A stretch of DNA of 22,004 nt, from positions 1 to 22,004 of the forward strand of contig CBDETK010000009.1 of assembly GCA_965242865.1 (NCBI GenBank), in the 5' to 3' direction. Below the pieces are notes generated by a model, which was given only the letters and a program-made list of their open reading frames with translations, ran no database searches and was not told where the DNA came from. This stretch comes from Candidatus Latescibacterota bacterium. Its GTDB lineage: Bacteria; Latescibacterota; UBA2968; UBA8231. The position numbers and the translations under genes were made by a program. How positions within the stretch are numbered: the first letter of the stretch is position 1; every line of letters starts with the position of its first letter. This document shows, piece after piece, positions 1 through 19,161 of the stretch.

Positions 1-200
1 CCGAAGCCGACGCGGATGGCTTTCCTTCCGGCCCAGCGGACGCGATACGCCCGGCGCATGCGCCCGGTGCGGACCGGGATGGCGGCGCGAAACTGGCGGC
101 CGGTGCGGCCCTTGCGCAGCTCGTTGGCTACGATGTTGCGGATGCGCCAGTTGGCTTGCCGGAAGCGGATGCCCTGCTGCCGGCGGGGGGTCTGGGTCAT
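1..200 (-). CDS. HK97 gp10-like basic virion protein, 5' part (runs off window edge)
   Basis: Same sequence as the 5' end of 20464-20913. ATG at 200, PVRTGRMRR motif. Confidence 0.6.
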   Translation of the reverse strand, partial: MTQTPRRQQGIRFRQANWRIRNIVANELRKGRTGRQFRAAIPVRTGRMRRAYRVRWAGRKAIRVGF

Positions 201-202
201 GC

Positions 203-2725
203 TTACAGCCTCCAGATGGTCAAGGGGGTAGGGTCGCGGTTGGTGCGGTCGGAGGCTATAAGCAGCCGGCGGTCTGAGCTGCGGCGAGCGAAGTAGAAGA
301 TGGTGTCCACGCCCGCGGCTGAGCCGGACCGCAGCTTATAGTCGGCAGCCGCGTAGCCGGCCACGCCAGACGATTGGGTTCCGGCCGTGCTGTGGATCTC
401 GCCGCCGTAGAACATGCGCACGGGCGCGATTTGGCCGCCGATGTTCATGATCCATAAGCCCGTAGCGAAGTTGGACGGCAGCGTGTAGCCGGTGTCCGTC
501 CAGCGGTTGGCGACCGTGATGTCCACGTTGCCCGAAAAGGCAGGAGCCAGCCCGGGGGCGCGGTCGGGGATATCGTCCGAGTGTTGAAAATCGGCCACGA
601 CGTTGGCCGAGAAAGAGCCGCTTCCACTGACTGCGCCAGATTGGCCGCGGTACTCCATGTACAGATAGACATTGCCCTGCCGCGGGTTTTCCGCCGAAGG
701 ACCGCTAATAGCGACATGCAAAAAGAGGAGGCCCTGCCGTTGGGCGCCGCTATATATCCCAAACGCCAGAAGCCCCACTCCTGGCCTACGAGCCAGGACC
801 AAACCGGGTGTCTGTCGCCGTAAATCTGTCATGGAAATAAGCGTCGACAGCCGTGCCGTGCGCTCAACGGCCTCGCTGCTAAAGGATAGGTTGGTCGGCA
901 CCGTGGGCTGGTTTAGCTGAACGCTCGCCTCTACTTCAAGGATGCCCTGAGCAAGGGCGGCGTTGCCCCTAAGTACCTGCGTATTGCTGTACCGAGTGCC
1001 CGTCAAATCGACCAGCGTCGGCACCGGCATCACCCCGTTGTGCAACTCTAGCAAGCCCGCCGAGCGTCCGCCCCCTCCGCTCACCGCGGGCGCGGGTATA
1101 TCCTGCCAAGCAGCCCCGGTCCACCGCTCGAGGTTGGACGGCGCGCTCGCGTCGTAGCGGACGTCGCCGGCCTTTGGCGGCGTCTCGGCAGAAAGCTCGA
1201 CCGGCTCGTCGTACTGGGGCGTGACGACCGCGCCGCCGGGCAGGTTGGCAATCTGCACCTCGAAGTAGTACCACATGGCGTTGGCCGAGTTGGCAATCTC
1301 TTGGAGGCCCGCCAGCGACTGATAGAGGTCGTCGTCGATGTTGAGCCGAAATTTCGTTGGGTCGTTGCCCAAGCTGTTGGCCACCCGCACGATGACATAC
1401 CAGTTCTGGCGGCGCGTGCCGTGCGTTACGGTGTCTGTGTAGCTGGCCGCGGTCGCTTGGTTGGCGTTGCGGCGCGTGGACTGCGGCCCCGAGATCTGCA
1501 GGTCGCCCGAGCGGGCTTCCCAGCCGCCGGCGGTCGTAGCGCGGTCGAGCGCATCGAGCTCTTGGCCCAGCTTGTCGGCGGGGATGTCGTCTTGGTTGCC
1601 TTCTTCGGCCCAGTTGGCTACGCCGGCCTGTACCCGGGCGTCGACCTGCGCTTGCGTGAGGCCGCCGCCGCCGCCGGACGGGGCGTTGCCCAGCTTGTTG
1701 AGCGGGATTTGGTCTGTGTTGCCGTCTTCGGCCCACGTCGCCGGGTCCGGTCCCTCGACCGCGGCCACCCGCGCATCGACCTGCGCTTGCGTAAGCCCCC
1801 CGGATTCATTGGCCCACTCCGCATCGCCGTCGGACGCGGCCTTGAGCACTTGGCCCACGTTCGGGTTGTCGGCCAGGTCGCGCGCGGCGGGCGTATCCCC
1901 TGAGCCTTGGGTAGCCCACGCCTCGACGCGGGCGCCAATGCGGGCGTCGACCTGCGCTTGGGTGAGGCCGCCGCCGCTCGCGGCCGCGGACGTCCGCACC
2001 CGATAGAGGGTAAAGCCCAGCGTACCGGTGCCATCTTGGTTGGCGATCAGGATGGTATTGTTCGCAGAGCGGCCAATCCAGAAGTCGGTGACGTTGTTGG
2101 CGTCCGGCAGCGCAATGACCTCACCGCCGGTGAGCTGTCGCCCCGGGTTGCTTGTTCCCAGCGCGCGAAACTGGGCGGCGTTGATCCAGAAGCTGCGTCC
2201 GTTGTCGAAGTCGAGCACAACCCAGCCGGCGGCGGGTACGACCAGACCGCTGTCTACGCTGGTCGTGCCCGAGGCGTTGAAGACGAAGTTGCTGCCTATC
2301 TGTTCAAAGACGGTCGAGGCCGGCGCGCTGGGCGGCTGCTCGGCGAGGATGCGCCGCACAATCGCCTCGACCGCCTGTTCGTCCACCGGCTGGCCGCCGT
2401 CGCCGGTGGCCGCGGCCACGTCGGCAAGGTCGAAATCGACCGGCGCAACGCCGCGCTGTACCCACGGGTCGACCAGCGCCCGCGCGCCGCTTTCGTTCCA
2501 GGCCACCCCAGAGCGCGTCACGTTGGGCGCGTCGTAGAGATAGCCAGCCACCCTAATAACCGCCTCGTCGCGCACGTCTTCGGGGGCCAGCGGCGCGTAG
2601 GTATCCACCAGCGCACGCCCGACCGCCAACAGGCGCGTGCCAATCGCCGTCAGTTGGGCGCTGACGACCTCGCCTTCGGGCGCGGCCCGTATCGCGTTGA
2701 GCAGTTGGGCAACCGTTAGAGCCAT
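203..2725 (-). CDS. Head-tail adaptor (HK97 gp6/SPP1 gp15-like N-terminus) fused to a long repeat-containing fibre/receptor-binding region, ~840 aa
   Basis: Start is more likely ATG 2725 (MALTVAQLL, GGAG upstream) than 2767. The first ~95 aa (APEDVRDEAVIRVAGYLYD...GARALVDPW) resemble gp6-type connectors. They are followed by 3 GGLTQAQVDAR repeats, Gly linkers, a YDAS...LERWTGAAW fibre-like motif and beta-rich domains. Confidence 0.7.
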   Translation of the reverse strand: MALTVAQLLNAIRAAPEGEVVSAQLTAIGTRLLAVGRALVDTYAPLAPEDVRDEAVIRVAGYLYDAPNVTRSGVAWNESGARALVDPWVQRGVAPVDFDLADVAAATGDGGQPVDEQAVEAIVRRILAEQPPSAPASTVFEQIGSNFVFNASGTTSVDSGLVVPAAGWVVLDFDNGRSFWINAAQFRALGTSNPGRQLTGGEVIALPDANNVTDFWIGRSANNTILIANQDGTGTLGFTLYRVRTSAAASGGGLTQAQVDARIGARVEAWATQGSGDTPAARDLADNPNVGQVLKAASDGDAEWANESGGLTQAQVDARVAAVEGPDPATWAEDGNTDQIPLNKLGNAPSGGGGGLTQAQVDARVQAGVANWAEEGNQDDIPADKLGQELDALDRATTAGGWEARSGDLQISGPQSTRRNANQATAASYTDTVTHGTRRQNWYVIVRVANSLGNDPTKFRLNIDDDLYQSLAGLQEIANSANAMWYYFEVQIANLPGGAVVTPQYDEPVELSAETPPKAGDVRYDASAPSNLERWTGAAWQDIPAPAVSGGGGRSAGLLELHNGVMPVPTLVDLTGTRYSNTQVLRGNAALAQGILEVEASVQLNQPTVPTNLSFSSEAVERTARLSTLISMTDLRRQTPGLVLARRPGVGLLAFGIYSGAQRQGLLFLHVAISGPSAENPRQGNVYLYMEYRGQSGAVSGSGSFSANVVADFQHSDDIPDRAPGLAPAFSGNVDITVANRWTDTGYTLPSNFATGLWIMNIGGQIAPVRMFYGGEIHSTAGTQSSGVAGYAAADYKLRSGSAAGVDTIFYFARRSSDRRLLIASDRTNRDPTPLTIWRL
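1566..1975 (-). repeat. Three intragenic GGLTQAQVDAR(x7-12)WA repeats
   Basis: Cores at about 1633-1666, 1769-1801 and 1940-1972. Two continue as WAE(D/E)GNxDxIPxxKLG. Confidence 0.9.
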
Positions 2726-3264
2726 CGTGATCTCCGTGAAGGTTTCGCCGGCGGCGCGTCGAGCCAACGTTGAATAAACTCGATCTCCGATTGGGGATAG
2801 GCCGGCCGATCGACGATGGAAACGCCCGTTATGGTGGCCTGCTCGATGACGATATCGCGGTGGCCGCGGTCACGGATTTTCTCATCGACAAACTCAATCG
2901 ACAAGCCCCGAAGCGCCCCGCGGTCGATGAGCGCGGCCGCATCGCGCCCCACGGTGGTATCGGGTAGGTCGATCTCGACGAAGTAGCCGCGATCGCGGCT
3001 GTCGAGCCGCAGGCCGCCGTTAGGGTATTGCGCCAGCAATTGCGAGCGGTCGTGCTGGACGGACGCTATCACCCCGCGGTTGTAGGGCGTCAACGCCCCG
3101 CGCTTGAACTGCTCGCGCAAGGCAAACGCGCCCCGGCCTAATCGGGCTACGTCCCCCCAGATAATAGCCGCCCCGCGCACAGTGCCTAACCCCCTCGCTA
3201 GGTCCCCGCTCTCGTTGCGGGTAAAGGCCAGTGGCAGGGCGGCGGATTGTTTGGCCGCGGTCAC
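2716..3264 (-). CDS. HK97-family prohead protease
   Basis: 182 aa with motifs F.EQF..GAL, HD, LPDT..GRD, GLSIEF, VSIVDRPAYP. GTGA overlap with the capsid stop. Confidence 0.92.
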   Translation of the reverse strand: MTAAKQSAALPLAFTRNESGDLARGLGTVRGAAIIWGDVARLGRGAFALREQFKRGALTPYNRGVIASVQHDRSQLLAQYPNGGLRLDSRDRGYFVEIDLPDTTVGRDAAALIDRGALRGLSIEFVDEKIRDRGHRDIVIEQATITGVSIVDRPAYPQSEIEFIQRWLDAPPAKPSRRSRWL

Positions 3265-4533
3265 TTCGCGGTCGCGACGAAGCGGCGGAAGTTAGCCGCG
3301 CGAATGAGGGCGAAATCCCACATCTGAATGATGGTGAGGGCGACTTGGCCCTTGGCCGCGGCCGTGTACGGATCGCGGATGAGCTGCAGGGACGGCCACA
3401 CGGCCGCGATCGCGGCGCCGGCCAGCCCGCGCCCCTTCGAGGCATAGGCCCACTTGTCGCCGTCGGCGAGCTGCCCGCCCGCGATGTGGTTGGACGAGTT
3501 CATCGACAGCCCCTGCATCTTGAGGATGTCGTAGAGGAACATTTCCACGTCCGCATTGACCAACTTCTTGAATGCGACCAGCGAGCTGCTATCCATCGCC
3601 AACTGCACGTCCTCGAGCATGGTCGCGTACACCCCATCAATCGCCGAGAGGACGTCCCCATGGAGGTCTTCGGCGGTCGCCGTCGAGAAGGTGGCTACCG
3701 TCTCGGTCTGGCCGGCCGCCAGCGCGTTGGACAGGCCGTTGGACGTCAGTTGGGCGTTGCCGTTGAAAATCTGGCTGTCCATCTCGTTGGCCAACGCCAT
3801 CGACAAGTCCTGACGAAGCCGCGCTTCCAACTGCGGCAGCCGCGCCAAATCTTCGAGCTCGAACAGGTACCGCGCCGTGATGCGATGCGGATCCATGACG
3901 ACCGTGGAGAGCGTGGCCGCGTCCGCGTCGTGGGCGGCAGCGCGGGCTACGGTGTCCGGGTCGACGCCGCCGGTGAGCACCGTGTGGACGCGCTCGCCCA
4001 CGGGCACGCTCTCGAAGGTGACGCCCAGCCAGCGGGCTATCGACGTGGTGAACACCCGCGCCAGGAAGCGGCCCGAGCTAACCGGCGCGTCCGCGGCGTT
4101 GAAGTCGCTGACCGCATCGGCCCGCTCTTCGGGCGCGACTAACATAATCAGCGGGATATGGCCGGCGTCCGCGGGGATTTTGAACGCTTCGGCCAGCTCT
4201 TTTTCCGCGCCTTCGGCGTTGCGCTGGCTGAGGGCGCTGACGGCGAAATTGGACAGCAGGGCGCGGCAGGATAGCTGCTGCAGCTCGCGGACTTCGGCGT
4301 CCGGGTTGTCGTCGCGCTTTTGTTCGGCGTCCGCGGTGTCTTCGTCCGCCGTCGAGTCGTCGTCCTGGGCTACGAGCGCGGCCCGCAGCTTAGGCTCGAT
4401 GTCCTGCAGCTCGCGGGTGGCTTTTTCCAGCTCAGCAGCTTCCGCGTCTTCGAGCGCGTCTTTTCCCAGCAAATCGTTGACGCGCTGACGAAGCTCGGAC
4501 TGCCGAACTTGGAGTTTCTGCAAAGGGGGTCAA
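3261..4533 (-). CDS. HK97-fold major capsid protein with N-terminal coiled-coil (delta/scaffold) domain
   Basis: ~420 aa: heptad-rich N-terminus, LRQDLSMALANEMDSQIFNGN, C-terminal LIRDPYT.A.KGQV.L.....WDF...R...F. Open from 4523. AGGAGG RBS and copy B (TTG ACC CCT TTG) point to a TTG start near 4533, with one extra G in copy A. Confidence 0.88.
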
Positions 4534-4556
4534 AGGGAAGTCCTCCTGTGAAAGGG

Positions 4557-5528
4557 TTACACAACAACAAATTCAGAACACCGGAGCCGCGCAAACCGCG
4601 CGCGATCTAAGTGCTCTACGCTGTCGACGCGCCAGACGGGGCGGCTGCCGTCCCACACGTCGAACTCGGATAAGAGGGCGGTCAAGGGCGGCACGTGGTC
4701 GCGGCGGACGATAAAGTCGGTAACGCGCCGCACCGTCGCTTGCGTGTCGCCTTGCTCATCGACCGTGTAATCGACGGTCTCGACCTCGCTGTCGTCGCGG
4801 CGGCTGAACAGGCGGCGGGCGGTAAACGGGCCTTCCGATTGGGGTTGTTGACCATAAAAGACGGGCACGGTGCGTAGGGTAACGAAGTCGGTAGTATCGG
4901 CGGCATCCCCCAACGCAAACAGCGCGGCTTCTTCGGTGCGCGTCACGTTCGTCTCGAAGTACAAAAGCTGCCTACGACTTGAGCCAAACGAGCCGCTCTT
5001 GGCTTGCGAGGTCAGCCCAAACCGGACGCGGCGGCGGCCCAGCGCTATCTCTATGGTCTGAACCGCAGGATAGTCCGACGGAAAAAGCGCCCCCGTGCTC
5101 AGGTCGTCTTCGGCGGCAATGACATTGGGCGGGATAGGCAAGCCCGGCCCAATCGCCCAGCCCACCGAGGGAATAGCGGCAAACGACACTCCAATCGACC
5201 CGCTACCAGCAACAGCCACCGCATTGGTCGGCTGGATGAGCAGTCGTTCGCCGGCGGTACGGGGACTGACAATATCCTTGACGAACGCAAACGCCCATGG
5301 GTCTGTGTTCTCGTTGGCCCACTGTATCCAATCCAACTGCCCACGTGGGGGCAATTGATCGTTGTAAAAAAGAGTCCTGGTCTCGAAACGCCCTTCCCAT
5401 ACGACGTTGGGCGTAATGCGCGGTAAGCCCTGATCTGCAGGCGGCACCGTAAGCGTCTGCGCGGGCACGCCATCCCCGACGTCTTTCCACGTCAACACCC
5501 CGTCGAGCGGATTTAGAATCTCGGTCAT
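4557..5528 (-). CDS. Virion protein, 323 aa; C-terminal ~100 aa resemble a head-closure (SPP1 gp16/HK97 gp7-like) domain, N-terminal ~220 aa unknown
   Basis: ATGA-coupled to the HNH gene. The C-terminus TDFIVRR...WDG...WRVDSVEHLDRARFARLRCSE follows the head-tail joining protein pattern. Confidence 0.55.
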   Translation of the reverse strand: MTEILNPLDGVLTWKDVGDGVPAQTLTVPPADQGLPRITPNVVWEGRFETRTLFYNDQLPPRGQLDWIQWANENTDPWAFAFVKDIVSPRTAGERLLIQPTNAVAVAGSGSIGVSFAAIPSVGWAIGPGLPIPPNVIAAEDDLSTGALFPSDYPAVQTIEIALGRRRVRFGLTSQAKSGSFGSSRRQLLYFETNVTRTEEAALFALGDAADTTDFVTLRTVPVFYGQQPQSEGPFTARRLFSRRDDSEVETVDYTVDEQGDTQATVRRVTDFIVRRDHVPPLTALLSEFDVWDGSRPVWRVDSVEHLDRARFARLRCSEFVVV

Positions 5529-5806
5529 AGCCCCTGCAACCTATCGTCCCATTCGAGTTTACGCGCTTTCACCTCGCGGCTCGTTTTTGCAATATGGCAC
5601 CCCCGGCACAAGGCCTGCAAATTGTGTAGCGACCAGAAGGGGCCGCCTTCGCGCCAATTCTTGACGTGATCGCACTCCAATCGACCAGCCCGCCCGCACT
5701 GGCGGCAGCGCCAGCCATCGCGCTCAAACACCTGCCGCCGAAGCTGTCGCCAGCGCGGAAGCTGGTAGTTGCGCCGCGCTTGGCGCACGCTGACGGAAGG
5801 CTTCAC
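5525..5806 (-). CDS. HNH endonuclease (terminase-associated, HK97 gp74-like)
   Basis: RWRQLRRQVFERDGWRCRQCG...ECDHV...NLQALCRGCHIAKT. Adjacent to terL. Confidence 0.93.
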   Translation of the reverse strand: MKPSVSVRQARRNYQLPRWRQLRRQVFERDGWRCRQCGRAGRLECDHVKNWREGGPFWSLHNLQALCRGCHIAKTSREVKARKLEWDDRLQGL

Positions 5807-5846
5807 GTTTTTTTTTCCGCTTTTAGGCCTGACAAACGATTAAGCT

Positions 5847-7448
5847 TCACGCCAACACCACCCGCGCCCGCGGCAATCCAATCGTCCCCAGCAATAGCTC
5901 GCCCAGCCCCGCGGCAATCACCCCAGCCTGCAGTACGTCGATGCGCCCCCGCGAGCGGGAGCGTTCCAGCGCGGGGTTGCCCGCCGGATCCCGGCGAATC
6001 GAGGATTCGCGTACCGCACTTTCGAATAGCAGGCTTTCTGCCATCGACCAGTCGGCGCGCAACACGTAGCGCTGGAACGCTCGGACATCGTGGCTGCCGT
6101 CGGCCCCGGCGGACGCGCCCTGCCCGCGGTAGACCATCGGCCAACTGATGGCCGCCTGCTGCAGGGCTTGGGCGGCTTCGGCCGCCCGATAGCGGTCGCA
6201 TCCGGCAGCCGACACTTCCTGATTTTTTAGCTGGTCCGCGCAGTCAAGCAGAAATTCTCCGACCGGCGTCACTCGACCCGGGTACACCTTCAGCTCGCCG
6301 CGATCGGCCATGCGCTGGTACAGGCCGCCCACCCCATCGCGGGCACCGCGGTCGATTAAATTCGGCGTCGAGGGGAACGCGCCCCATGCTTCGGCCCGTC
6401 CCGTAGCTGGCCAAAAAGCGACCAGCGCGGTCATACTCGATGCGCCCCCCAGGTCGAAGCCAATCACGCACGGCCCCCTTCGCGGCGCAGGCTCTTTGTG
6501 CACGCACGCCATCCAATCGGTTAAGCTGCACAAACTTTCACGCGATGGATCCTGGGGCTGGTTGAGGTCGTAGGCGCGGAACGAGGGCTGATCGGCGGGG
6601 CTGTCGAGCGCCCGTTGCGCCATGTCGCGCATATACTCCATGGACTTAATGCCGCGGCGTAAACCCGGATTAGCCGCATGCCAGGTCTGGGGCTGGTCGA
6701 TGGCCGCGGTCAACGGCGCGGCATATTCATGCCAGCAGACTCCGCGCTGAGCGCGGTCGCGCATCTCCTTGAACATCGGCCCCATCCCCTGAATGCTGAT
6801 GCAGAGCAAGCGCCCGTTGCGACCGCTGGTCGAGGACAGCACCGCGTTCCATAGCTCGCGGTGTGTCTCTTCGAGCAAGCCGGCCTCATCGATAATCGCT
6901 AAGTCGCTGCCGATGGCGTGCCCGGTCGCGCGGTCGCTGGCGAGGAATTTGACCGCGGCCCCGCGGTCGCCTTCGACGCGACCCGGTTGGGGCGTTTGCC
7001 GGTCGATTATTTCGAAGCCGCTCGCTTCGGCCGTTAATGAGATGGCCAGCCGCAGCTCTTTGGCCAGCTCGCCAGTCAGGCTGATGACGACCCCGCGCCA
7101 ATCGGGCCGATTGAGCGGCCCCACCAAGTGGCCCAGCACGTAGGCGGCTATTAGGCCAGACTTCCCATTCTTCCGCGCCACCGACAGCCCGCTTTCGCGC
7201 GCAGTGTGCGCTTCGCGGAGGAAGTGCTGCTGCCAATCGTCAATCAGGAAGGGTTCGCCCTGCAACGGCCCCGAGGGCACTTTCAGCTTGGCTTCGGCCC
7301 ACGCAAAAAAGCCGTCGAGGTCCGGTTCATACTCGGCTGCCGAACGCAGACATACGGACGCAGCGGCCTTTTTCTCCTTCTGCTTGCGCCGCCACTCACG
7401 CATATACGCCGCGTGATTGGCCCTTCTTTTTTTGGTCTCGTCCTTCAC
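5847..7448 (-). CDS. terL: Terminase large subunit (HK97/cos-type family)
   Basis: 533 aa with adenine-binding motif (PFLIDDWQ), Walker A VARKNGKS, Walker B LAIIDEAG, motif III ISIQG, W.AANP.L, nuclease GFDLG and C-terminal RID. Confidence 0.95.
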   Translation of the reverse strand: MKDETKKRRANHAAYMREWRRKQKEKKAAASVCLRSAAEYEPDLDGFFAWAEAKLKVPSGPLQGEPFLIDDWQQHFLREAHTARESGLSVARKNGKSGLIAAYVLGHLVGPLNRPDWRGVVISLTGELAKELRLAISLTAEASGFEIIDRQTPQPGRVEGDRGAAVKFLASDRATGHAIGSDLAIIDEAGLLEETHRELWNAVLSSTSGRNGRLLCISIQGMGPMFKEMRDRAQRGVCWHEYAAPLTAAIDQPQTWHAANPGLRRGIKSMEYMRDMAQRALDSPADQPSFRAYDLNQPQDPSRESLCSLTDWMACVHKEPAPRRGPCVIGFDLGGASSMTALVAFWPATGRAEAWGAFPSTPNLIDRGARDGVGGLYQRMADRGELKVYPGRVTPVGEFLLDCADQLKNQEVSAAGCDRYRAAEAAQALQQAAISWPMVYRGQGASAGADGSHDVRAFQRYVLRADWSMAESLLFESAVRESSIRRDPAGNPALERSRSRGRIDVLQAGVIAAGLGELLLGTIGLPRARVVLA

Positions 7449-7546
7449 TTTTTCATGCCCACGTGAAAGCGCGTGTTCCCCCTTGTGCGGTTTGTCCCCC
7501 TAGGCGCGACCGCCACAGGGGTCCCCGCCGCCGCCCCCGCCGTCCC

Positions 7547-7732
7547 CTTTCCACACCATCTTGTGGAAAAGATAGCAAGATGTATGGGCATCGCTAGTTT
7601 TCCACATTCTTTCCACATCCTTTCCACATCCTTCCTTCATAGGCGGGTCCACAAATCCACAGCCCCTAGTAGTGGTAAGGACAAATCCACAGCCTTGGAT
7701 CGTAGTACTAGGGGCTGTGGATTTGTGGATAA
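7547..7732. promoter_or_regulatory. DnaA-box-like array, candidate replication origin
   Basis: Perfect TTATCCACA on the minus strand (7724-7732), TTTTCCACA at 7598-7606 and 7562-7570 (minus), CTTTCCACA at 7547, 7609 and 7620, plus several AAATCCACA/TCCACA. About 10 TCCACA cores in 186 bp. Confidence 0.75.
7648..7729. repeat. Perfect 24-bp inverted repeat with an internal 14-bp direct copy
   Basis: tccacaaatccacagcccctagta (7648-7671) is the reverse complement of tactaggggctgtggatttgtgga (7706-7729). acaaatccacagcc is repeated at 7681-7694. Confidence 0.93.
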
Positions 7733-7794
7733 AAAAAAGTGCTGGACATCCGCAGACACATCATATTTATTTGTCTGTGCAATCAGGAGGCTCT

Positions 7795-7962
7795 ATGAAC
7801 TGTGCAGTCTGCGGCAGCCCAATCGATGGGTATCGCCGTGCCTTAAACCCTCGCATCAAGACGTGCTCGCCGCCCTGCTCAAAGCGCCACGCCATGAATC
7901 TGCGGAACTTGGCCGCGCGGAATAAGCGTAAACGCGAGCGCGCACAAAGAAAGGAGCGATGA
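7795..7962 (+). CDS. Small Cys4 zinc-finger protein with basic tail, 55 aa
   Basis: AGGAGG at 7785-7790 and ATG at 7795. CAVC...CSPPC then RNKRKRER. ATGA-coupled to the lysozyme. Confidence 0.75.
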   Translation: MNCAVCGSPIDGYRRALNPRIKTCSPPCSKRHAMNLRNLAARNKRKRERAQRKER

Positions 7963-8540
7963 TGGTAGAGCATGCCATCCTCGTTTCCGTCCTCAAATCG
8001 GAGGGCGGCTACGTCAACGACCCCAACGACAGCGGCGGCGAGACCTATGCCGGCATTGCCCGGCACTACAATCCCGGCTGGGAAGGCTGGGACGAAGTGG
8101 ACCGCTGGACCGGCAATAAGAACTCGCCAGACTTGCAAGACTTGCTGATGCCCATGCTGCTGCGTTTTTGGGATACTTACCTGAAGTCCAACCATATCGA
8201 GCACGTGCCGGGGCCGTTGCGGCTTCAGTACGCGCACATGGCCGCAACCAGCCCCAAGCGCGCCATCGCCGCCCTGCAGCAATTGGTGGTGTGGACGAAT
8301 CCCCTGTTGGGGTCGCCGAAGTTCGTCGATGGGCTGTGGGGCAGGAATACCCGGCAGGCCGTAGAGGACTGGTTGTCACCGGACCTCAACGCATCCGACA
8401 TGCAGAAGGGCTACTGCATAGCCTGCATAGCCCTGTACTGCGACTCGGTACGGGATCGTCCGAGTAATCAACGCTTCCTGCATGGTTGGGCGCGCCGGAC
8501 CGTCGCTGTCTGGCAAGAGGCGATCGGCCATGCAGCTTGA
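7959..8540 (+). CDS. Glycoside hydrolase family 108 lysozyme (endolysin) with C-terminal peptidoglycan-binding region
   Basis: EGGYVNDPNDSGGETYAGI catalytic motif, VDGLWG.NT, RFLHGW.RR. GGAG RBS. Confidence 0.92.
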   Translation: MMVEHAILVSVLKSEGGYVNDPNDSGGETYAGIARHYNPGWEGWDEVDRWTGNKNSPDLQDLLMPMLLRFWDTYLKSNHIEHVPGPLRLQYAHMAATSPKRAIAALQQLVVWTNPLLGSPKFVDGLWGRNTRQAVEDWLSPDLNASDMQKGYCIACIALYCDSVRDRPSNQRFLHGWARRTVAVWQEAIGHAA

Positions 8541-8700
8541 AACGTGGCTATACATTCCGCTCGACGACGAGGTGCCGCTGAGGATACGACTTCAGCTGCG
8601 CACTCCCATCGGAAAATTCAAAACGGTGATAGGCTTTTGCTCGATTACTATTCACAATCGAGAGTGTAAGCCGCGCTGGAGAGGCATCGCATTAAATTAG
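8530..8700 (+). CDS. Hypothetical protein, 56 aa
   Basis: GAGG at 8517-8520 and ATG at 8530 overlapping the lysozyme end. Intact in both copies, no recognisable motif. Confidence 0.4.
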   Translation: MQLETWLYIPLDDEVPLRIRLQLRTPIGKFKTVIGFCSITIHNRECKPRWRGIALN

Positions 8701-8838
8701 TTTAGCGACTTGGCTAAATCGCCCGTCGCTACCCCTGTCGGCACCGGAATGCTGGATCGATGGCCAGCTAATGGGGACAGAAGAGCGGATAAAAGCCGAA
8801 TAAACGCTCTCGTTTTTCCCCTATGAAGAACGATCCAA

Positions 8839-8866
8839 ACTAACGATAAATCCTATTATCGTTCGT
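8839..8866. other. dif-like / tyrosine-recombinase-type site (11-6-11)
   Basis: ACTAACGATAA-ATCCTA-TTATCGTTCGT. The ATAA-N6-TTAT core is as in E. coli dif (GGTGCGCATAA-TGTATA-TTATGTTAAAT). Arms extend to a 12/13 inverted match (8837-8868). Confidence 0.55.
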
Positions 8867-8901
8867 TTGTACGGCTTATGAAGTCCAGTCGAGAATTTCG
8901 A

Positions 8902-10026
8902 TCATGCTTCTTGTTCCATTAGGCCCGAAAGGGCCGCCGCTTTGTCCACCGCCATACCCCCCCCAACCATCGATTGAAACGCCCGCGCACGCCCGCTTAA
9001 ATCGGACGCGAACAGGCGGTCGAAGTTAAGCTGCACGCGCTCGTCCAGCTTGATCGACAGCTCTTCAGCTACGATTTCAGCTACGGGCTGAATCGTCCCA
9101 TGCAGGAAGCGTCGCCAGCTCTCGCGCTGGCTGGTTCCGTCCGAACTTTCTTCGAGTAACGCGGGCGGCACGCCCAACGCCGCGGTGATGATGCGGCTGA
9201 CTTCTACGCGGAGCGTCCCTAAGCTGTCGGGGGGATTGGGGCCTATCCGCTGGGGCGTCCAGTCCTGCCGCGGCGCGGAAAAGCGCCCTTCGCCCCAGCC
9301 GCTGGCCGTGGTCTCAACGAGCACCGTTTTGCCGCGGATACTGCCGAGTGCTTTGCGGGTGTCTTCCAGCGGATCGTACATCGTGCCGTCGGGCTTTTGC
9401 CGCGGGGAAGGGTCGCGCGGCAAGGCAATGATATTGCCTACCTGCGCGGCCGCTTCTTCGCCCAGCCGCGTCTCCAGCAGGTTGGCCAAGCGTTGGGTCG
9501 CCGCCGCGCGCTCCAGCGGCGCTTGGCCCTTCCAGGGCTGCTCAGGGCGGCGGCCAATCATAAAATGCAGCACGCCATCCCAGGGCGCGCGGCGCGTGCG
9601 GTTGCCCGAAGGCCCCAGCACGTCGAGCCGATAGCGCCAGCGCTGAGGATGGACGCCCGGGCCGTTGACCTCCCACGACGAAGCAATCCCCGCGGCGAGC
9701 ATCCCGTCGTCGAGCACGTCGAGCAGCCAGCAGCTTTCGCCCGTATAGACAAATTCGCGGGCTACCAGCCCCAGCATCGACGGACCGCACACGCCCTGCG
9801 CTCGGCGCCCGCGCACGGTCGCGGAGGCAAAGGCGCGCTCCCACAAGCCCGCGCACGCTTCTTGGGCGGCCAGCCCCGCGCGGATGGCTTCGTTGCTGGC
9901 TTGGGCCTGCTCCTCGACGGCGCGCTCAATGGCGGAGGAGAAGGAGATGGCGCGCCACTCGGCGAGCGCCAGTTGATGGACGCGCTGGCGGAGGACCGCG
10001 GGCCGAAACCAATCGAGGGCCTTCAC
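8902..10026 (-). CDS. Portal protein (HK97-like, short), 374 aa
   Basis: Likely GTG start at 10026, GTGA-coupled to the upstream ORF. Motifs GVLHF......PW.G.APL, I.AALGVPP.LL, F...TIQP....AEELS.KL, D...RA......V.GG. Confidence 0.88.
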   Translation of the reverse strand: MKALDWFRPAVLRQRVHQLALAEWRAISFSSAIERAVEEQAQASNEAIRAGLAAQEACAGLWERAFASATVRGRRAQGVCGPSMLGLVAREFVYTGESCWLLDVLDDGMLAAGIASSWEVNGPGVHPQRWRYRLDVLGPSGNRTRRAPWDGVLHFMIGRRPEQPWKGQAPLERAAATQRLANLLETRLGEEAAAQVGNIIALPRDPSPRQKPDGTMYDPLEDTRKALGSIRGKTVLVETTASGWGEGRFSAPRQDWTPQRIGPNPPDSLGTLRVEVSRIITAALGVPPALLEESSDGTSQRESWRRFLHGTIQPVAEIVAEELSIKLDERVQLNFDRLFASDLSGRARAFQSMVGGGMAVDKAAALSGLMEQEA

Positions 10027-10154
10027 TTGTGATGCTTCCGCTCGCGCTTGCGCCGGTGATGCTCGGCGTGAACCAGCTTGCCCAGCATGGCCGTGCAGAA
10101 AATGGTTAGGACATCGAACAGGTCGATGCCCTCTTGGATGAGCCAATCGCCCAT
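10023..10154 (-). CDS. Small membrane protein, 43 aa (holin-like candidate)
   Basis: GAGGAGG RBS and ATG at 10154. One hydrophobic stretch (LFDVLTIFCTAMLGKLV) followed by HHRRKRERKHHK. Confidence 0.55.
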   Translation of the reverse strand: MGDWLIQEGIDLFDVLTIFCTAMLGKLVHAEHHRRKRERKHHK

Positions 10155-10167
10155 AGGGGAAACCTCC

Positions 10168-10617
10168 TCAGAGCAGTTGTAGTGCGATACGCGCCAGCGG
10201 ATGCGAGCCAAACGTCAAGCGTATCAGCTTCTTGAGCGTGAAGGTGCGGGCCGCCTTGCGACGGAGGGCGCGGCCGGTCTTGTCGAGCTTTTCTTGGAAC
10301 ACCGCCCTCGCAATGCGCCCAGACTGGCGGGCAAACGCCAGCCTATAGGCCCTACGGATGGCCTTGACCGCGCGCAGGCGCCAGATGAACTGATAGACCC
10401 AGTAGGGAACGCGGCTGCCGAAGCCGACGCGGATGGCTTTCCTTCCGGCCCAGCGGACGCGATACGCCCGGCGCATGCGCCCGGTGCGGACCGGGATGGC
10501 GGCGCGAAACTCGCGGCCGGTGCGGCCCTTGCGCAGCTCGTTGGCTACGATGTTGCGGATGCGCCAGTTGGCTTGCCGGAAGCGGATGCCCTGCTGCCGG
10601 CGGGGGGTCTGGGTCAT
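10168..10617 (-). CDS. HK97 gp10-like, highly Arg-rich virion/neck protein, 149 aa
   Basis: AAIPVRTGRMRRAY resembles the gp10 PVxTGxLRxS motif, followed by VGF....PYW.Y. Starts 2 nt after the fibre gene stop. Confidence 0.6.
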   Translation of the reverse strand: MTQTPRRQQGIRFRQANWRIRNIVANELRKGRTGREFRAAIPVRTGRMRRAYRVRWAGRKAIRVGFGSRVPYWVYQFIWRLRAVKAIRRAYRLAFARQSGRIARAVFQEKLDKTGRALRRKAARTFTLKKLIRLTFGSHPLARIALQLL

Positions 10618-10619
10618 GC

Positions 10620-13134
10620 TTACAGCCTCCAGATGGTCAAGGGGGTAGGGTCGCGGTTGGTGCGGTCGGAGGCTATAAGCAGCCGGCGGTCTGAGTTGCG
10701 GCGAGCGAAGTAGAAGATGGTGTCCACGCCCGCGGCTGAGCCGGACCGCAGCTTATAGTCGGCAGCCGCGTAGCCGGCCACGCCAGACGATTGGGTTCCG
10801 GCCGTGCCGTGGATCTCGCCGCCGTAGAACATGCGCGCGGGCGCGATTTGGCCGCCGATGTTCATGATCCATAAGGCCGTAGCGAAGTTGGACGGCAGCG
10901 TGTAGCCGGTGTCCGTCCAGCGGTTGGCGACCGTGATGTCCACGTTGCCCGAAAAGGCTGGGAATAGGTCGGTCGGGGATATCGTCCGAGTGTTGAAAAT
11001 CGGCCACGACGTTGGCCGAGAAAGAGCCGCTTCCACTGACTGCGCCAGATTGGCCGCGGTACTCCATGTACATATAGACATTGCCCTCCCGCGGGCTTTC
11101 CGCCGAAGGACCGCTAATAGCGACATGCAAAATGAGGGAGCCCTGCCATTGGGCGCCGCTATATATAAAAAACCCCAGAAGCCCCACTCCTGGCCTATTA
11201 GCCAGGACCAAACCGGGTGTCCGTCGCCGTAAATCTGTCATGGAAATAAGCGTCGACTGCCGTGCCGTGCGCTCAACGGCCTCGCTGCTAAAGGATAGGT
11301 TGACCGGCACCGTGGGCTGGTTTAGCTGAACGCTCGCCTCTACTTCAAGGATGCCCTGAGCAAGGGCGGCGTTGCCCCTAAGTACCTGCGTATTGCTGTA
11401 CCGATTGCCCGTCAAATCGACCAGCGTCGGCACCGGCATCACCCCGTTGTGCAACTCTCGCAAGCCCGCCGAGCGTCCGCCCCCTCCGCTCACCGCGGGC
11501 GCGGGTATATCCTGCCAAGCAGCCCCGGTCCACCGCTCGAGGTTGGACGGCGCGCTCGCGTCGTAGCGGACGTCGCCGGCCTTTGGCGGCGTCTCGGCAG
11601 AAAGCTCGACCGGCTCGTCGTACTGGGGCGTGACGACCGCGCCGCCGGGCAGGTTGGCAATCTGCACCTCGAAGTAGTACCACATGGCGTTGGCCGAGTT
11701 GGCAATCTCTTGGAGGCCCGCCAGCGACTGATAGAGGTCGTCGTCGATGTTGAGCCGAAATTTCGTTGGGTCGTTGCCCAAGCTGTTGGCCACCCGAACG
11801 ATGACATACCAGTTCTGGCGGCGCGTGCCGTGCGTTACGGTGTCTGTGTAGCTGGCCGCGGTCGCTTGGTTGGCGTTGCGGCGCGTGGACTGCGGCCCCG
11901 AGATCTGCAGGTCGCCCGAGCGGGCTTCCCAGCCGCCGGCGGTCGTGGCGCGGTCGAGCGCATCGAGCTCTTGGCCCAGCTTGTCGGCGGGGATGTCGTC
12001 TTGGTTGCCTTCTTCGGCCCAGTTGGCTACGCCGGCCTGTACCCGGGCGTCGACCTGCGCTTGCGTGAGGCCGCCGCCGCCGCCGGACGGGGCGTTGCCC
12101 AGCTTGTTGAGCGGGATTTGGTCTGTGTTGCCGTCTTCGGCCCACGTCGCCGGGTCCGGTCCCTCGACCGCGGCCACCCGCGCATCGACCTGGGCTTGCG
12201 TGAGGCCGCCGGATTCATTGGCCCACTCCGCATCGCCGTCGGACGCGGCCTTGAGCACTTGGCCCACTTGCGGGTTGTCGGCCAGGTCGCGCGCGGCGGG
12301 CGTATCCCCTGAGCCTTGCGTAGCCCACGCCTCGACGCGGGCGCCAATGCGGGCGTCGACCTGCGCTTGGGTGAGGCCGCCGCCGCTCGCGGCAGCCGCC
12401 GTCCGCACCCGATAGAGGGTAAAGCCCAGCGTGCCGGTGCCATCTTGGTTGGCGATCAGGATGGTATTGTTCGCAGAGCGGCCAATCCAGAAGTCGGTGA
12501 CGTTGTTGGCGTCCGGCAGCGCAATGACCTCACCGCCGGTGAGATGTCGCCCCGGGTTGCTTGTTCCCAGCGCGCGAAACTGGGCGGCGTTGATCCAGAA
12601 GCTGCGTCCGTTGTCGAAGTCGAGCACAACCCAGCCGGCGGCGGGTACGACCAGACCGCTGTCTACGCTGGTCGTGCCCGAGGCGTTGAAGACGAAGTTG
12701 CTGCCTATCTGTTCAAAGACGGTCGAGGCCGGCGCGCTGGGCGGCTGCTCGGCGAGGATGCGCCGCACAATCGCCTCGACCGCTTCTTCGTCCACCGGCT
12801 GGCCGCCGTCGCCGGTGGCCGCGGCCACGTCGGCAAGGTCGAAATCGACCGGCGCAACGCCGCGCTGTACCCACGGGTCGACCAGCGCCCGCGCGCCGCT
12901 TTCGTTCCAGGCCACCCCAGAGCGCGTCACGTTGGGCGCGTCGTAGAGATAGCCAGCCACCCTAATAACCGCCTCGTCGCGCACGTCTTCGGGGGCCAGC
13001 GGCGCGTAGGTATCCACCAGCGCACGCCCGACCGCCAACAGGCGCGTGCCAATCGCCGTCAGTTGGGCGCTGACGACCTCGCCTTCGGGCGCGGCCCGTA
13101 TCGCGTTGAGCAGTTGGGCAACCGTTAGAGCCAT
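10620..13134 (-). CDS. Adaptor/fibre fusion, allele B; apparent frameshift near 10960
   Basis: A 19-nt segment of A is replaced by 11 nt (net -8). Removing one G from the ggg run gives in-frame DIPDRPIPAFSG, so the gene is probably intact with a read error. Confidence 0.65.
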
Positions 13135-13673
13135 CGTGATCTCCGTGAAGGTTTCGCCGGCGGCGCGTCGAGCCAACGTTGAATAAACTCGATCTCCGAT
13201 TGGGGATAGGCCGGCCGATCGACGATGGAAACGCCCGTTATGGTGGCCTGCTCGATGACGATATCGCGGTGGCCGCGGTCACGGATTTTCTCATCGACAA
13301 ACTCAATCGACAAGCCCCGAAGCGCCCCGCGGTCGATGAGCGCGGCCGCATCGCGCCCCACGGTGGTATCGGGTAGGTCGATCTCGACGAAGTAGCCGCG
13401 ATCGCGGCTGTCGAGCCGCAGGCCGCCGTTAGGGTATTGCGCCAGCAATTGCGAGCGGTCGTGCTGGACGGACGCTATCACCCCGCGGTTGTAGGGCGTC
13501 AACGCCCCGCGCTTGAACTGCTCGCGCAAGGCAAACGCGCCCCGGCCTAATCGGGCTACGTCCCCCCAGATAATAGCCGCCCCGCGCACAGTGCCTAACC
13601 CCCTCGCTAGGTCCCCGCTCTCGTTGCGGGTAAAGGCCAGTGGCAGGGCGGCGGATTGTTTGGCCGCGGTCAC
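13125..13673 (-). CDS. HK97-family prohead protease (copy B)
   Basis: Translation identical to 2716-3264. Confidence 0.92.
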   Translation of the reverse strand: MTAAKQSAALPLAFTRNESGDLARGLGTVRGAAIIWGDVARLGRGAFALREQFKRGALTPYNRGVIASVQHDRSQLLAQYPNGGLRLDSRDRGYFVEIDLPDTTVGRDAAALIDRGALRGLSIEFVDEKIRDRGHRDIVIEQATITGVSIVDRPAYPQSEIEFIQRWLDAPPAKPSRRSRWL

Positions 13674-14943
13674 TTCGCGGTCGCGACGAAGCGGCGGAAG
13701 TTAGCCGCGCGAATGAGGGCGAAATCCCACATCTGAATGATGGTGAGGGCGACTTGGCCCTTGGCCGCGGCCGTGTACGGATCGCGGATGAGCTGCAGGG
13801 ACGGCCACACGGCCGCGATCGCGGCGCCGGCCAGCCCGCGCCCCTTCGAGGCATAGGCCCACTTGTCGCCGTCGGCGAGCTGCCCGCCCGCGATGTGGTT
13901 GGACGAGTTCATCGACAGCCCCTGCATCTTGAGGATGTCATAGAGGAACATTTCCACGTCCGCATTGACCAACTTCTTGAATGCGACCAGCGAGCTGCTA
14001 TCCATCGCCAACTGCACGTCCTCGAGCATGGTCGCGTACACCCCATCAATCGCCGAGAGGACGTCCCCATGGAGGTCTTCGGCGGTCGCCGTCGAGAAGG
14101 TGGCTACCGTCTCGGTCTGGCCGGCCGCCAGCGCGTTGGACAGGCCGTTGGACGTCAGTTGGGCGTTGCCGTTGAAAATCTGGCTGTCCATCTCGTTGGC
14201 CAACGCCATCGACAAGTCCTGACGAAGCCGCGCTTCCAACTGCGGCAGCCGCGCCAAATCTTCGAGCTCGAACAGGTACCGCGCCGTGATGCGATGCGGA
14301 TCCATGACGACCGTGGAGAGCGTGGCCGCGTCCGCGTCGTGGGCGGCAGCGCGGGCTACGGTGTCCGGGTCGACGCCGCCGGTGAGCACCGTGTGGACGC
14401 GCTCGCCTACGGGCACGCTCTCGAAGGTGACGCCCAGCCAGCGGGCTATCGACGTGGTGAACACCCGCGCCAGGAAGCGGCCCGAAGACTAACCGGCGCG
14501 TCCGCGGCGTTGAAGTCGCTGACCGCATCGGCCCGCTCTTCGGGCGCGACTAACATAATCAGCGGGATATGGCCGGCGTCCGCGGGGATTTTGAACGCTT
14601 CGGCCAGCTCTTTTTCCGCGCCTTCGGCGTTGCGCTGGCTGAGGGCGCTGACGGCGAAATTGGACAGCAGGGCGCGGCAGGATAGCTGCTGCAGCTCGCG
14701 GACTTCGGCGTCCGGGTTGTCGTCGCGCTTTTGTTCGGCGTCCGCGGTGTCTTCGTCCGCCGTCGAGTCGTCGTCCTGGGCTACGAGCGCGGCCCGCAGC
14801 TTAGGCTCGATGTCCTGCAGCTCGCGGGTGGCTTTTTCCAGCTCAGCAGCTTCCGCGTCTTCGAGCGCGTCTTTTCCCAGCAAATCGTTGACGCGCTGAC
14901 GAAGCTCGGACTGCCGAACTTGGAGTTTCTGCAAAGGGGTCAA
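13670..14943 (-). CDS. Major capsid protein (copy B), split by 2 extra nt near 14485-14488
   Basis: cccgaagactaacc vs cccgagctaacc in A. ORF halves are 14446-14943 and 13670-14464. Confidence 0.8.
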
Positions 14944-14966
14944 AGGGAAGTCCTCCTGTGAAAGGG

Positions 14967-15938
14967 TTACACAACAACAAATTCAGAACACCGGAGCCGC
15001 GCAAACCGCGCGCGATCTAAGTGCTCTACGCTGTCGACGCGCCAGACGGGGCGGCTGCCGTCCCACACGTCGAACTCGGATAAGAGGGCGGTCAAGGGCG
15101 GCACGTGGTCGCGGCGGACGATAAAGTCGGTAACGCGCCGCACCGTCGCTTGCGTGTCGCCTTGCTCATCGACCGTGTAATCGACGGTCTCGACCTCGCT
15201 GTCGTCGCGGCGGCTGAACAGGCGGCGGGCGGTAAACGGGCCTTCCGATTGGGGTTGTTGACCATAAAAGACGGGCACGGTGCGTAGGGTAACGAAGTCG
15301 GTAGTATCGGCGGCATCCCCCAACGCAAACAGCGCGGCTTCTTCGGTGCGCGTCACGTTCGTCTCGAAGTACAAAAGCTGCCTACGACTTGAGCCAAACG
15401 AGCCGCTCTTGGCTTGCGAGGTCAGCCCAAACCGGACGCGGCGGCGGCCCAGCGCTATCTCTATGGTCTGAACCGCAGGATAGTCCGACGGAAAAAGCGC
15501 CCCCGTGCTCAGGTCGTCTTCGGCGGCAATGACATTGGGCGGGATAGGCAAGCCCGGCCCAATCGCCCAGCCCACCGAGGGAATAGCGGCAAACGACACT
15601 CCAATCGACCCGCTACCAGCAACAGCCACCGCATTGGTCGGCTGGATGAGCAGTCGTTCGCCGGCGGTACGGGGACTGACAATATCCTTGACGAACGCAA
15701 ACGCCCATGGGTCTGTGTTCTCGTTGGCCCACTGTATCCAATCCAACTGCCCACGTGGGGGCAATTGATCGTTGTAAAAAAGAGTCCTGGTCTCGAAACG
15801 CCCTTCCCATACGACGTTGGGCGTAATGCGCGGTAAGCCCTGATCTGCAGGCGGCACCGTAAGCGTCTGCGCGGGCACGCCATCCCCGACGTCTTTCCAC
15901 GTCAACACCCCGTCGAGCGGATTTAGAATCTCGGTCAT
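14967..15938 (-). CDS. 323-aa protein with head-closure-like C-terminus (copy B)
   Basis: Translation identical to 4557-5528. Confidence 0.55.
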   Translation of the reverse strand: MTEILNPLDGVLTWKDVGDGVPAQTLTVPPADQGLPRITPNVVWEGRFETRTLFYNDQLPPRGQLDWIQWANENTDPWAFAFVKDIVSPRTAGERLLIQPTNAVAVAGSGSIGVSFAAIPSVGWAIGPGLPIPPNVIAAEDDLSTGALFPSDYPAVQTIEIALGRRRVRFGLTSQAKSGSFGSSRRQLLYFETNVTRTEEAALFALGDAADTTDFVTLRTVPVFYGQQPQSEGPFTARRLFSRRDDSEVETVDYTVDEQGDTQATVRRVTDFIVRRDHVPPLTALLSEFDVWDGSRPVWRVDSVEHLDRARFARLRCSEFVVV

Positions 15939-16216
15939 AGCCCCTGCAACCTATCGTCCCATTCGAGTTTACGCGCTTTCACCTCGCGGCTCGTTTTTGC
16001 AATATGGCACCCCCGGCACAAGGCCTGCAAATTGTGTAGCGACCAGAAGGGGCCGCCTTCGCGCCAATTCTTGACGTGATCGCACTCCAATCGACCAGCC
16101 CGCCCGCACTGGCGGCAGCGCCAGCCATCGCGCTCAAACACCTGCCGCCGAAGCTGTCGCCAGCGCGGAAGCTGGTAGTTGCGCCGCGCTTGGCGCACGC
16201 TGACGGAAGGCTTCAC
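15935..16216 (-). CDS. HNH endonuclease (copy B)
   Basis: Translation identical to 5525-5806. Confidence 0.93.
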   Translation of the reverse strand: MKPSVSVRQARRNYQLPRWRQLRRQVFERDGWRCRQCGRAGRLECDHVKNWREGGPFWSLHNLQALCRGCHIAKTSREVKARKLEWDDRLQGL

Positions 16217-16256
16217 GTTTTTTTTTCCGCTTTTAGGCCTGACAAACGATTAAGCT

Positions 16257-17858: not shown

Positions 17859-17889
17859 TTTTTCATGCCCACTGTATGGGCATCGCTAG

Positions 17890-18024
17890 TTTTCCACATT
17901 CTTTCCACATCCTTTCCACATCCTTCCTTCATAGGCGGGTCCACAAATCCACAGCCCCTAGTAGTGGTAAGGACAAATCCACAGCCTTGGATCGTAGTAC
18001 TAGGGGCTGTGGATTTGTGGATAA
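17890..18024. promoter_or_regulatory. DnaA-box-like array (copy B, lacking the two leftmost boxes)
   Basis: Same as 7598-7732. TGTGGATAA at 18016-18024. Confidence 0.72.
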
Positions 18025-18086
18025 AAAAAAGTGCTGGACATCCGCAGACACATCATATTTATTTGTCTGTGCAATCAGGAGGCTCT

Positions 18087-18995: not shown

Positions 18996-19133
18996 TTTAG
19001 CGACTTGGCTAAATCGCCCGTCGCTACCCCTGTCGGCACCGGAATGCTGGATCGATGGCCAGCTAATGGGGACAGAAGAGCGGATAAAAGCCGAATAAAC
19101 GCTCTCGTTTTTCCCCTATGAAGAACGATCCAA

Positions 19134-19161
19134 ACTAACGATAAATCCTATTATCGTTCGT
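19134..19161. other. dif-like site (copy B)
   Basis: Identical to 8839-8866. Confidence 0.55.

Follow-up and report, generated by a model that had tools for sequence, protein, structure and literature searches.

Replacement-only divergence in the distal domains of an adaptor-fused fibre encoded by a small phage-like element of a Latescibacterota bacterium

The 22,004-nt stretch analyzed here (the window) is a whole contig, C9, one of the 13 contigs in the assembly (GCA_965242865.1) of a Candidatus Latescibacterota bacterium, whose chromosome is the 5.6-Mb contig C13. C9 consists of 2.1 head-to-tail copies (A, B, and A′) of a phage-like unit of ~10.4 kb. Copies A and B carry two alleles of a gene whose product, judging from structural models, is best described as an HK97-gp6-like head-to-tail adaptor fused to a fibre. 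In the distal part of this gene the alleles differ at 18 codons, and each difference replaces an amino acid; elsewhere in the unit, 14 of the codon differences are silent and 6 are replacements. The most likely cause, and in our view a probable one, is diversifying selection, within a mixed population, on a domain for host recognition. The copies and the parts of the fibre gene are as follows:

1-10417, copy A
10418-20713, copy B
20714-22004, copy A′
203-2725, minus strand, adaptor-fibre gene of copy A; 840 aa from the ATG at 2725, with the frame open up to a TTG at 2767 and the stop codon at 203-205
10620-13134, minus strand, adaptor-fibre gene of copy B (allele B); frame broken near 10962-10969, hot spot at 11071-11304
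20916-22004, minus strand, incomplete third gene copy (A′), with no difference from A
2441-2725, minus strand, putative head-to-tail adaptor module at the N terminus (residues 1-95), with very little variation among paralogues
1100-2335, minus strand, shaft with three to four copies of a GGLTQAQVDARV-type repeat (family D4)
557-1069, minus strand, distal domain D1 (open reading frame [ORF] codons 567-737), a predicted beta-sandwich
662-895, minus strand, hot spot within the distal region; 12 variable codons, 17 variable bases
542-560, minus strand, Ala/Pro-rich linker between D1 and D2, of varying length among paralogues
206-556, minus strand, C-terminal module D2 (codons 738-854)

Results

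The two copies of the unit differ by replacements alone in the distal fibre

The 1291 nt of A′ are 100% identical to A. Copies A and B are separated by 54 substitutions and 133 indel columns, with 39 of the substitutions and one replaced 19-nt stretch falling in the fibre gene. When the minus-strand ORF 203-2767 of A was tabulated against B, 18 codons between codons 573 and 830 (window 278-1051) differed, at 23 bases, all of them non-synonymously. Thirteen of these bases occupy the second codon position, nine the first, and one the third (base 758, in codon 670, GGG/TTT). All four codons that differ at more than one base (625, 660, 670, and 680) lie inside the hot spot. D1 holds 14 of the 18 variable codons, and D2 holds the other four (770, 783, 793, and 830). 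Of the 13 codon differences in the N-terminal part (codons 131-460), 9 are silent. Outside the fibre gene there are just five silent and two replacement changes: two silent changes in the capsid gene, which are the only A/B substitutions in the upstream block 2716-7448, three silent and one replacement in the portal gene, and one replacement in a gp10-like ORF.

A preliminary description of this DNA, made from the letters alone, had listed 18 codon pairs with 23 changed nucleotides, one at a third position and none silent, and our codon table reproduces that list exactly. The reported cluster of twelve codons and the mostly silent differences of the N-terminal half were likewise recovered, and the TerL, protease, HNH, and lysozyme ORFs, described as identical, contain no A/B substitution.

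Nei-Gojobori counts of replacement and silent differences per site gave pN = 0.035 and pS = 0.002 (pN/pS ~15) for codons 561-854, compared with pN = 0.004 and pS = 0.026 (pN/pS 0.16) for codons 15-560. Finding at most 1 of 23 changes at the third position has P=0.0011, and the same value was obtained for 0.5 of 23 changes being synonymous when 25.7% of the sites are. The silent-to-replacement ratio (0/18) differs from that of the N-terminal part (9/4; Fisher P=3.5e-5) and from that of the whole rest of the unit (14/6; Fisher P=4e-6). Variable codons are clustered, with 12 of 18 inside 78 of 294 codons (P=4e-4); four or more multi-hit codons are expected with P ~0.001; and substitutions are tenfold denser here than elsewhere in the unit (23 per 849 nt vs 24 per 9568 nt). 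The variable sites correspond to the least conserved columns of the paralogue alignment (mean 0.22 vs 1.02 of 3 identical, P=9e-4); lineage-specific insertions contain three of these sites. A common sequence motif at the variant sites was looked for and not found. The pattern is real and statistically robust.

The fibre protein joins an adaptor-like module to predicted beta-sandwich domains

The protein, which is encoded in the structural module of the unit and is modular and mosaic among its relatives, matched no Pfam, PHROG, or NCBIfam family and no PDB sequence. Its N-terminal module has stand-alone homologues of 95-125 aa. The AlphaFold2 model of the module is helical (pLDDT 86.4), and 14 of the 15 best rows of a VIA fold search were neck or connector entries of phages, gene transfer agents (GTAs), or satellites. 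The match to HK97 gp6 has a Z of 7.7, i.e., under 8, with a root-mean-square deviation of 2.3 over 77 of 96 residues, and sequence identity to the RcGTA adaptor is 22%. Foldseek found no match for the module; no connector family was detected at E<=1 in Pfam or PHROG searches with the module, or at E<=0.1 (Pfam) or E<=0.01 (PHROGs) with its 18 members.

The distal 299 residues were modeled as two beta-sandwiches. The best phage match of D1 is the tail fibre of Klebsiella phage Kp9 (Z 5.8), and the best four rows for D2 are distal domains of phage receptor-binding proteins (RBPs), fibres, or tailspikes (Z 6.0-7.2, all under 8), among them phi812/K gp144, the T7 gp17 tip, and a tailspike C terminus. 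With the distal model as query, Foldseek returned only poor nodavirus matches (TM 0.2), and the best ESM Atlas score for the distal domains was 0.79, below a useful level. The preliminary description had spoken of a receptor-binding domain. The fold resemblances (Z 5.8-7.2) are weak and, taken together with the gene context, point in that direction; from them we infer that the distal domain binds a receptor.

Relatives of the element and of its fibre are few. Contig C12 of the same assembly contains 2.09 copies of a related 10.5-kb unit. These copies, in which a replicate of the A/B pattern was sought, are 99.98% identical and differ at only 2 bases, both outside the fibre gene. C6 holds another related unit, and in both contigs the fibre regions are diverged or replaced. 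Full-length relatives of the fibre are limited to the C12 and C6 paralogues and a few metagenome proteins, and the adaptor-fibre fusion occurs in A, C12, C6, the ENA protein P0004, and two other proteins. Across C9, C12, C6, and P0004 the N-module is invariant, and the shaft and distal parts are swapped or diverged. In a library of 1.84 billion proteins, D1 has about four relatives (P0002, P0004, P0014, and perhaps P0007). D2 recurs in other fibre-like proteins, in this assembly and elsewhere: D2-like modules (~30% identical) end large ORFs at C4:19061-19450, C11:5515-5898, and C2:4590-4919 (open frames of 809, 793, and 1997 aa), on three mutually related phage-like contigs of the same assembly.

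A search for fibre alleles yielded four proteins among 8000 candidates, namely copy B, the two paralogues, and one ENA protein; among 5629 shorter candidates there was one unrelated partial match. No relative was found when the distal domains or the four-paralogue alignment were run against viral, metagenome, and genome contigs. One of 60 related genomes (G030) matches the repeat module over 77 residues at 68% identity; the match is carried by ORFs with open frames of 1012 and 950 aa (its contig C2:15497-15727 and 50415-50645). Three IMG/VR contigs of 7.7-8.6 kb (L011, L012, and L013) contain relatives of the adaptor module. Their adaptor is a separate small gene, unlike the fusion described here, but the gene order, itself unusual, is the same as in C9: the adaptor follows capsid and protease in L011 and precedes the portal in L012. 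A tyrosine integrase is also encoded in L012, and an 855-aa cadherin-like protein in L011. The element is almost unrecorded in public collections.

Independent contigs show polymorphism at the variant sites

This DNA is also present among the assembled contigs of four runs (X1-X4), all from one study, with X2 and X4 from one sample. Placed on unit A, the contigs indicate that the element is tandem or circular, and it is not integrated in the assembly studied here. Letters of the run contigs are given as they appear among the differences from unit A that were listed. At 459, 894, 895, and 996, which belong to three codons, the B letter is found in every one of the four runs. A 1741-nt contig of X3 (depth 67) equals A over 1-1346 except for the B letters at these four positions and is a third haplotype; A differs from it by 3 replacement codons and B by 15, with replacement changes only. 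Contigs of X2 and X4 end or begin beside A/B variant sites, at 663/664, 723/724, and 849/850, as expected of bubbles in an assembly graph. An X4 contig (record 23) has 8 differences and no gap over 1-723; from the count alone, these would be the B-type substitutions of that interval outside the replaced linker. The preliminary description had made allele B depend on support from independent reads. Checked on contigs, polymorphism at exactly these sites is confirmed, directly for 3 of the 18 codons and indirectly for the other 15. What the concatemeric contig strings together as copies are most likely two haplotypes of the population.

Both copies also contain errors. Copy B has one extra base in each of four homopolymers where A, C12, and C6 agree, and at 4076 it is a hybrid of two real haplotypes, with a 2-nt insertion that frameshifts the capsid gene; its insertion sites (14486-14488, 18090, 18138, 18240, and 20159) disrupt the reading frames of the capsid gene, the lysis region, and the portal gene. 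In copy A a surplus G stands at 4525, against the reading of B, C12, and all four runs. In the fibre gene, 542-560 is replaced in B by a stretch that is a net 8 nt shorter and breaks the reading frame; a different frame stays open through the final 116 codons, and these are conserved in P0004. The preliminary description was silent on this replacement. Because copy B is error-prone, its frameshifts, including that in the fibre gene, are probably artefacts. The errors seen in B are indels, not substitutions, and the B substitutions are unlike error in that they share no motif and respect codon positions.

Retroelement-driven mutagenesis and inversion are not supported

The preliminary description had offered targeted mutagenesis as a possible source of the variation. 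Diversity-generating retroelements (DGRs) are the only well-known kind. In their targets, the variable repeat lies at the extreme C terminus and the fold is C-type-lectin-like. No RVT match indicating a reverse transcriptase was found among the ORFs of the unit, and the genome's sole RVT_1 match, a 516-aa ORF, lies on the chromosome beside a HATPase_c_4 gene. A sensitive blastn-short search of the 13 contigs with 203-1100 of both alleles revealed no template repeat; it returned only the three C9 copies and weak paralogue matches (59-84% identity over <=193 nt). The assembly is 93.6% complete. On the coding strand of the hot spot, 39 adenines are identical in both alleles, and of the 17 variable sites 8 have A in one allele and 9 in neither; the best-fitting model of adenine mutagenesis expects 32/21/2 where 39/8/9 were observed (chi-square P=9e-8). 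The hot spot lies ~460-690 nt before the stop codon, and no lectin-type match stood out for the distal model (beta-sandwich, pLDDT 67). We rejected a DGR on the lack of a reverse transcriptase in the unit and of a template repeat and on the adenine statistics. Switching by inversion or a shufflon was rejected too, the window having no inverted repeats of >=40 nt.

Shaft differences resemble exchange among paralogues

The A/B differences in the shaft are mostly silent, clustered, and common to C12 or C6. At 1784-1910, where the paralogues align well, B carries C12 or C6 letters. Within this stretch, at 1784-1799 (12193-12208 in B), there are four silent differences in 16 nt, which bring B's copy of the internal 64-nt repeat closer to its sister copies and to C12, a pattern suggestive of gene conversion, whether inside one fibre gene or between such genes. 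More broadly, the N-terminal differences are put down to exchange among family members, which partly homogenizes the internal repeats. In the distal region the paralogues are locally only 30-60% identical and the B codons are not carried consistently, so on alignment evidence the C12 and C6 paralogues could not have been donors there.

Gene content of the unit

The remaining features of the unit are listed below with their coordinates in copy A:

2716-7448, minus strand, same-strand block upstream of the fibre gene
5847-7448, minus strand, TerL
5525-5806, minus strand, HNH endonuclease
4557-5528, minus strand, 323-aa ORF with no assigned function
3261-4523, minus strand, HK97-type capsid protein
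2716-3264, minus strand, prohead protease
8902-10617, minus strand, block downstream of the fibre gene
10168-10617, minus strand, Arg-rich gp10-like ORF
8902-10146, minus strand, portal protein
7463-8540, plus strand, divergent intergenic region, small Cys-rich ORF, and endolysin
7550-7729, TCCACA motif cluster in the divergent intergenic region
7794-7925, plus strand, small Cys-rich ORF
7959-8540, plus strand, GH108 endolysin

Among the ORFs of the unit, none was recognized as a gene for a tail tube, tape measure, baseplate, integrase, or replication protein. The 323-aa ORF reached a best ESM Atlas score of 0.76, below a useful level. The Cys-rich ORF (43 codons, two Cys-x-x-Cys-type pairs) is located just upstream of the endolysin gene, comes with a strong ribosome-binding site, and matched no family.

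Ten TCCACA motifs, direct and inverted, lie within 180 nt at 7550-7729, with a counterpart at 17893-18021 in copy B. The window contains 24 such motifs compared with 6.4 expected, a number reached in 0 of 100 shuffles. We take them to resemble DnaA boxes, and the cluster may be an origin for a unit that has no replication gene. Nearby, a 118-nt stretch (7463-7580) is absent from copy B, and the first C12 copy lacks 81 nt with the same left boundary (7462/7463). Contigs of X1, X2, and X3 halt at 7475/7476 and restart at 7725, and the part for which they list no contig (7477-7724) is not counted as missing; one X2 contig runs past 7475 into 26 foreign letters, presumably a template-switching adapter. 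This region could mark a transcript start or a DNA end.

Host spacers match the element family

The chromosome carries an array of clustered regularly interspaced short palindromic repeats (CRISPR) at C13:3522935-3525849 (locus L010, 6935-9850), with 41 copies of a 37-nt repeat. The element family is matched by three consecutive spacers, which are numbers 3, 4, and 5 when counted from the low-coordinate end. Their targets are:

TerL, 2 mismatches
fibre N-module, 3 mismatches
C12-type D1 region homologous to the C9 hot spot, 6 mismatches

These matches tie the element to this host and indicate ongoing conflict. Escape from CRISPR would not itself avoid silent changes. Another spacer matches window 7460-7481 in part, over 22 nt. 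On the small phage-like contig C4, the chromosomal repeat occurs twice around a single 34-nt spacer (C4:12436-12543), a mini-array located off the chromosome; no target of this spacer was found among the small contigs.

Discussion

We propose that the contig is a concatemer-like assembly whose successive units would carry two coexisting haplotypes of an element population, near-identical except in the distal fibre, mainly in D1 and less so in D2. Ordinary mutations, several of them at adjacent bases, would have been kept in the distal fibre only when they changed the protein, under positive and probably frequency-dependent selection on a host-recognition surface. The arms race would be with the bacterium whose chromosome shares the assembly and whose CRISPR array has spacers against the element. 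The silent differences in the shaft would come from a different process, exchange with paralogous elements. The preliminary description had also named diversifying selection, and the pN/pS contrast (which holds without the multi-base changes) and the low conservation of the variable sites in the family argue for it. That selection rather than an unknown mutator produced the bias is what we infer.

Several observations weigh against this proposal. The four multi-hit codons are all adjacent-base changes, and multinucleotide mutations inflate replacement counts and mimic positive selection, as a preprint reports in the part drawn on here (bioRxiv 10.1101/165969). Because of this, the tests were repeated with single-base changes only: the comparison with the rest of the unit (0/14 vs 14/3) retains P=3.5e-6, but the test within the region weakens to P=0.016. 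The distal model is of modest quality (pLDDT 67), and 9 of the 18 variable residues fall in predicted strands, compared with 51% overall, with no enrichment in loops. Only two full alleles and a partial third are available. The four runs are from one study, which possibly includes the source sample, and are not fully independent; in none of them is the A letter seen at 459, 894, 895, or 996. The 15 codons other than the three read directly, those with B letters at 664-849 included, are supported indirectly, by the break points and the X4 count, among the differences listed. Finally, copy B carries at least five consensus errors.

These last points bear on the possibility that B (or A) corresponds to no real molecule and is a consensus, mis-polished or chimeric, of noisy long reads in which haplotypes were mixed, as the homopolymer insertions in B, its hybrid site at 4076, the extra G in A, the four A letters missing from the runs, and a fibre frame that is broken in B while the frame downstream stays open would lead one to suspect. 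Sequencing error, however, is blind to codon position (P=0.001) and cannot avoid silent changes, the sites share no motif, and the errors seen in B are indels. Short-read contigs break at the variant sites and confirm four B letters, as well as A letters elsewhere, and a chimera of real haplotypes would still amount to a real replacement-only polymorphism; we regard an artefact as unlikely. Relaxed constraint combined with multinucleotide mutation, in which sites free to vary accumulate tandem changes with no adaptive drive, would fit the position of the variable sites in the least conserved columns of the family (three of them in lineage-specific insertions), the adjacent-base nature of all multi-hit codons, and the half of the sites in predicted strands. 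Relaxation, however, lifts pN/pS only towards 1, and the value here is ~15 with all replacement sites counted; none of the 14 single-base changes is silent, and the dinucleotide changes are all in register 1-2 (3 of 3, P=0.04). This explanation seems to us improbable.

Patchwise gene conversion from unseen donors, such as other fibre alleles or silent cassettes, is equally improbable as the source of the distal differences. It evidently shaped the N-terminal differences, where B has C12 or C6 letters at 1784-1910; the family is mosaic, and adjacent-base changes could be micro-conversion tracts. Against this stand the expectation that diverged donors would bring silent differences, of which there are none in 294 codons, the local divergence of the paralogues in the assembly, with their inconsistent match to the B codons, and the lack of any other copy in the genome. 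Least probable of all, and very much so, is that a DGR or other templated mutagenesis rewrites the domain, with the restriction to positions 1 and 2 reflecting AAY-type template codons. The changes do avoid third positions; in four codons two or three neighboring bases have changed and the third base is mostly retained, as in variable repeats; what would be rewritten is the C-terminal region of a phage fibre; and a trans-acting element could be missing from an assembly that is 93.6% complete. On the other side, morphogenesis and lysis genes take up the coding space of the unit and include no reverse transcriptase, the single RVT_1 match of the genome is chromosomal, none of the 13 contigs has a further copy of 203-1100, the adenine model is rejected (P=9e-8), and the variable sites are spread over 770 nt. 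Diversifying selection on the host-recognition domain remains our preferred reading.

Variation of this kind is well documented for phage RBPs in the parts of the literature drawn on here; what is unusual in this case is its purity and its carrier. As in the hypervariable regions of phage fibres and tailspikes, the replacements lie in distal domains of a modular, mosaic gene, the head and packaging genes are identical, and the host has CRISPR spacers against the element in the same assembly. The present case differs in being extreme for one pair of alleles (18:0, with four multi-base codons) and in its carrier, an adaptor-fibre fusion on a ~10.4-kb element, with a D1 that has only about four relatives in 1.84 billion proteins. 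In DGRs of the Bordetella phage BPP-1 Mtd type, too, variation in a phage RBP is limited to its C-terminal part and to codon positions 1 and 2; there is no reverse transcriptase, template repeat, or adenine specificity here, and the sites extend over 770 nt.

The N-terminal 95 residues are predicted to fold into the same helical module as the adaptors of HK97 (gp6), RcGTA, and podoviruses (Z 7.1-7.8). Stand-alone homologues have ~100 aa, and the gene similarly lies beside those for protease and capsid and before that for the portal. In contrast to these adaptors, the module continues here into ~745 residues of shaft and distal domains, has no Pfam or PHROG match, and gives nothing in Foldseek. 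D2 superposes on the RBP of phage K (gp144) and phi812 and on the T7 gp17 tip (Z 6.3-7.2 over 82-99 residues), a resemblance at the level of fold only, with Z under 8, a pLDDT of 67, and no sequence similarity. Phage-inducible chromosomal islands that form capsids (cf-PICIs) are also elements of ~10 kb with TerL, HNH, portal, protease, HK97-type capsid, and adaptor. The present element differs from them in having its own fibre and endolysin, in lacking a detected integrase or replication gene in the unit, and in being tandem or circular rather than integrated.

We tentatively suggest, with more doubt than conviction, that the carrier belongs to an undescribed minimal HK97-type lineage: a tandem or circular element of ~10.4 kb with head, packaging, and lysis genes, no recognizable tail tube, tape-measure, or baseplate, and the adaptor-fused fibre as its sole organ of host recognition. 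It might replicate with host proteins from the DnaA-box-like cluster. Several lineages differing mainly in their fibres would coexist in one CRISPR-targeting host, and the distal domain would change in replacement-only, partly multi-base bursts, possibly by a process other than a DGR.

An absence of third-position changes is, on this evidence, an insufficient signature for calling a DGR. The two alleles are an unusually clean natural example of replacement-only divergence in what appears to be a phage host-recognition domain. Since the element, its paralogues, the host chromosome, and the CRISPR spacers are all contained in one assembly, the evolution of host range can be studied here with defined alleles, and so small a carrier with an adaptor-fused fibre may show the minimum that a head-tail virus lineage needs for cell recognition and entry.

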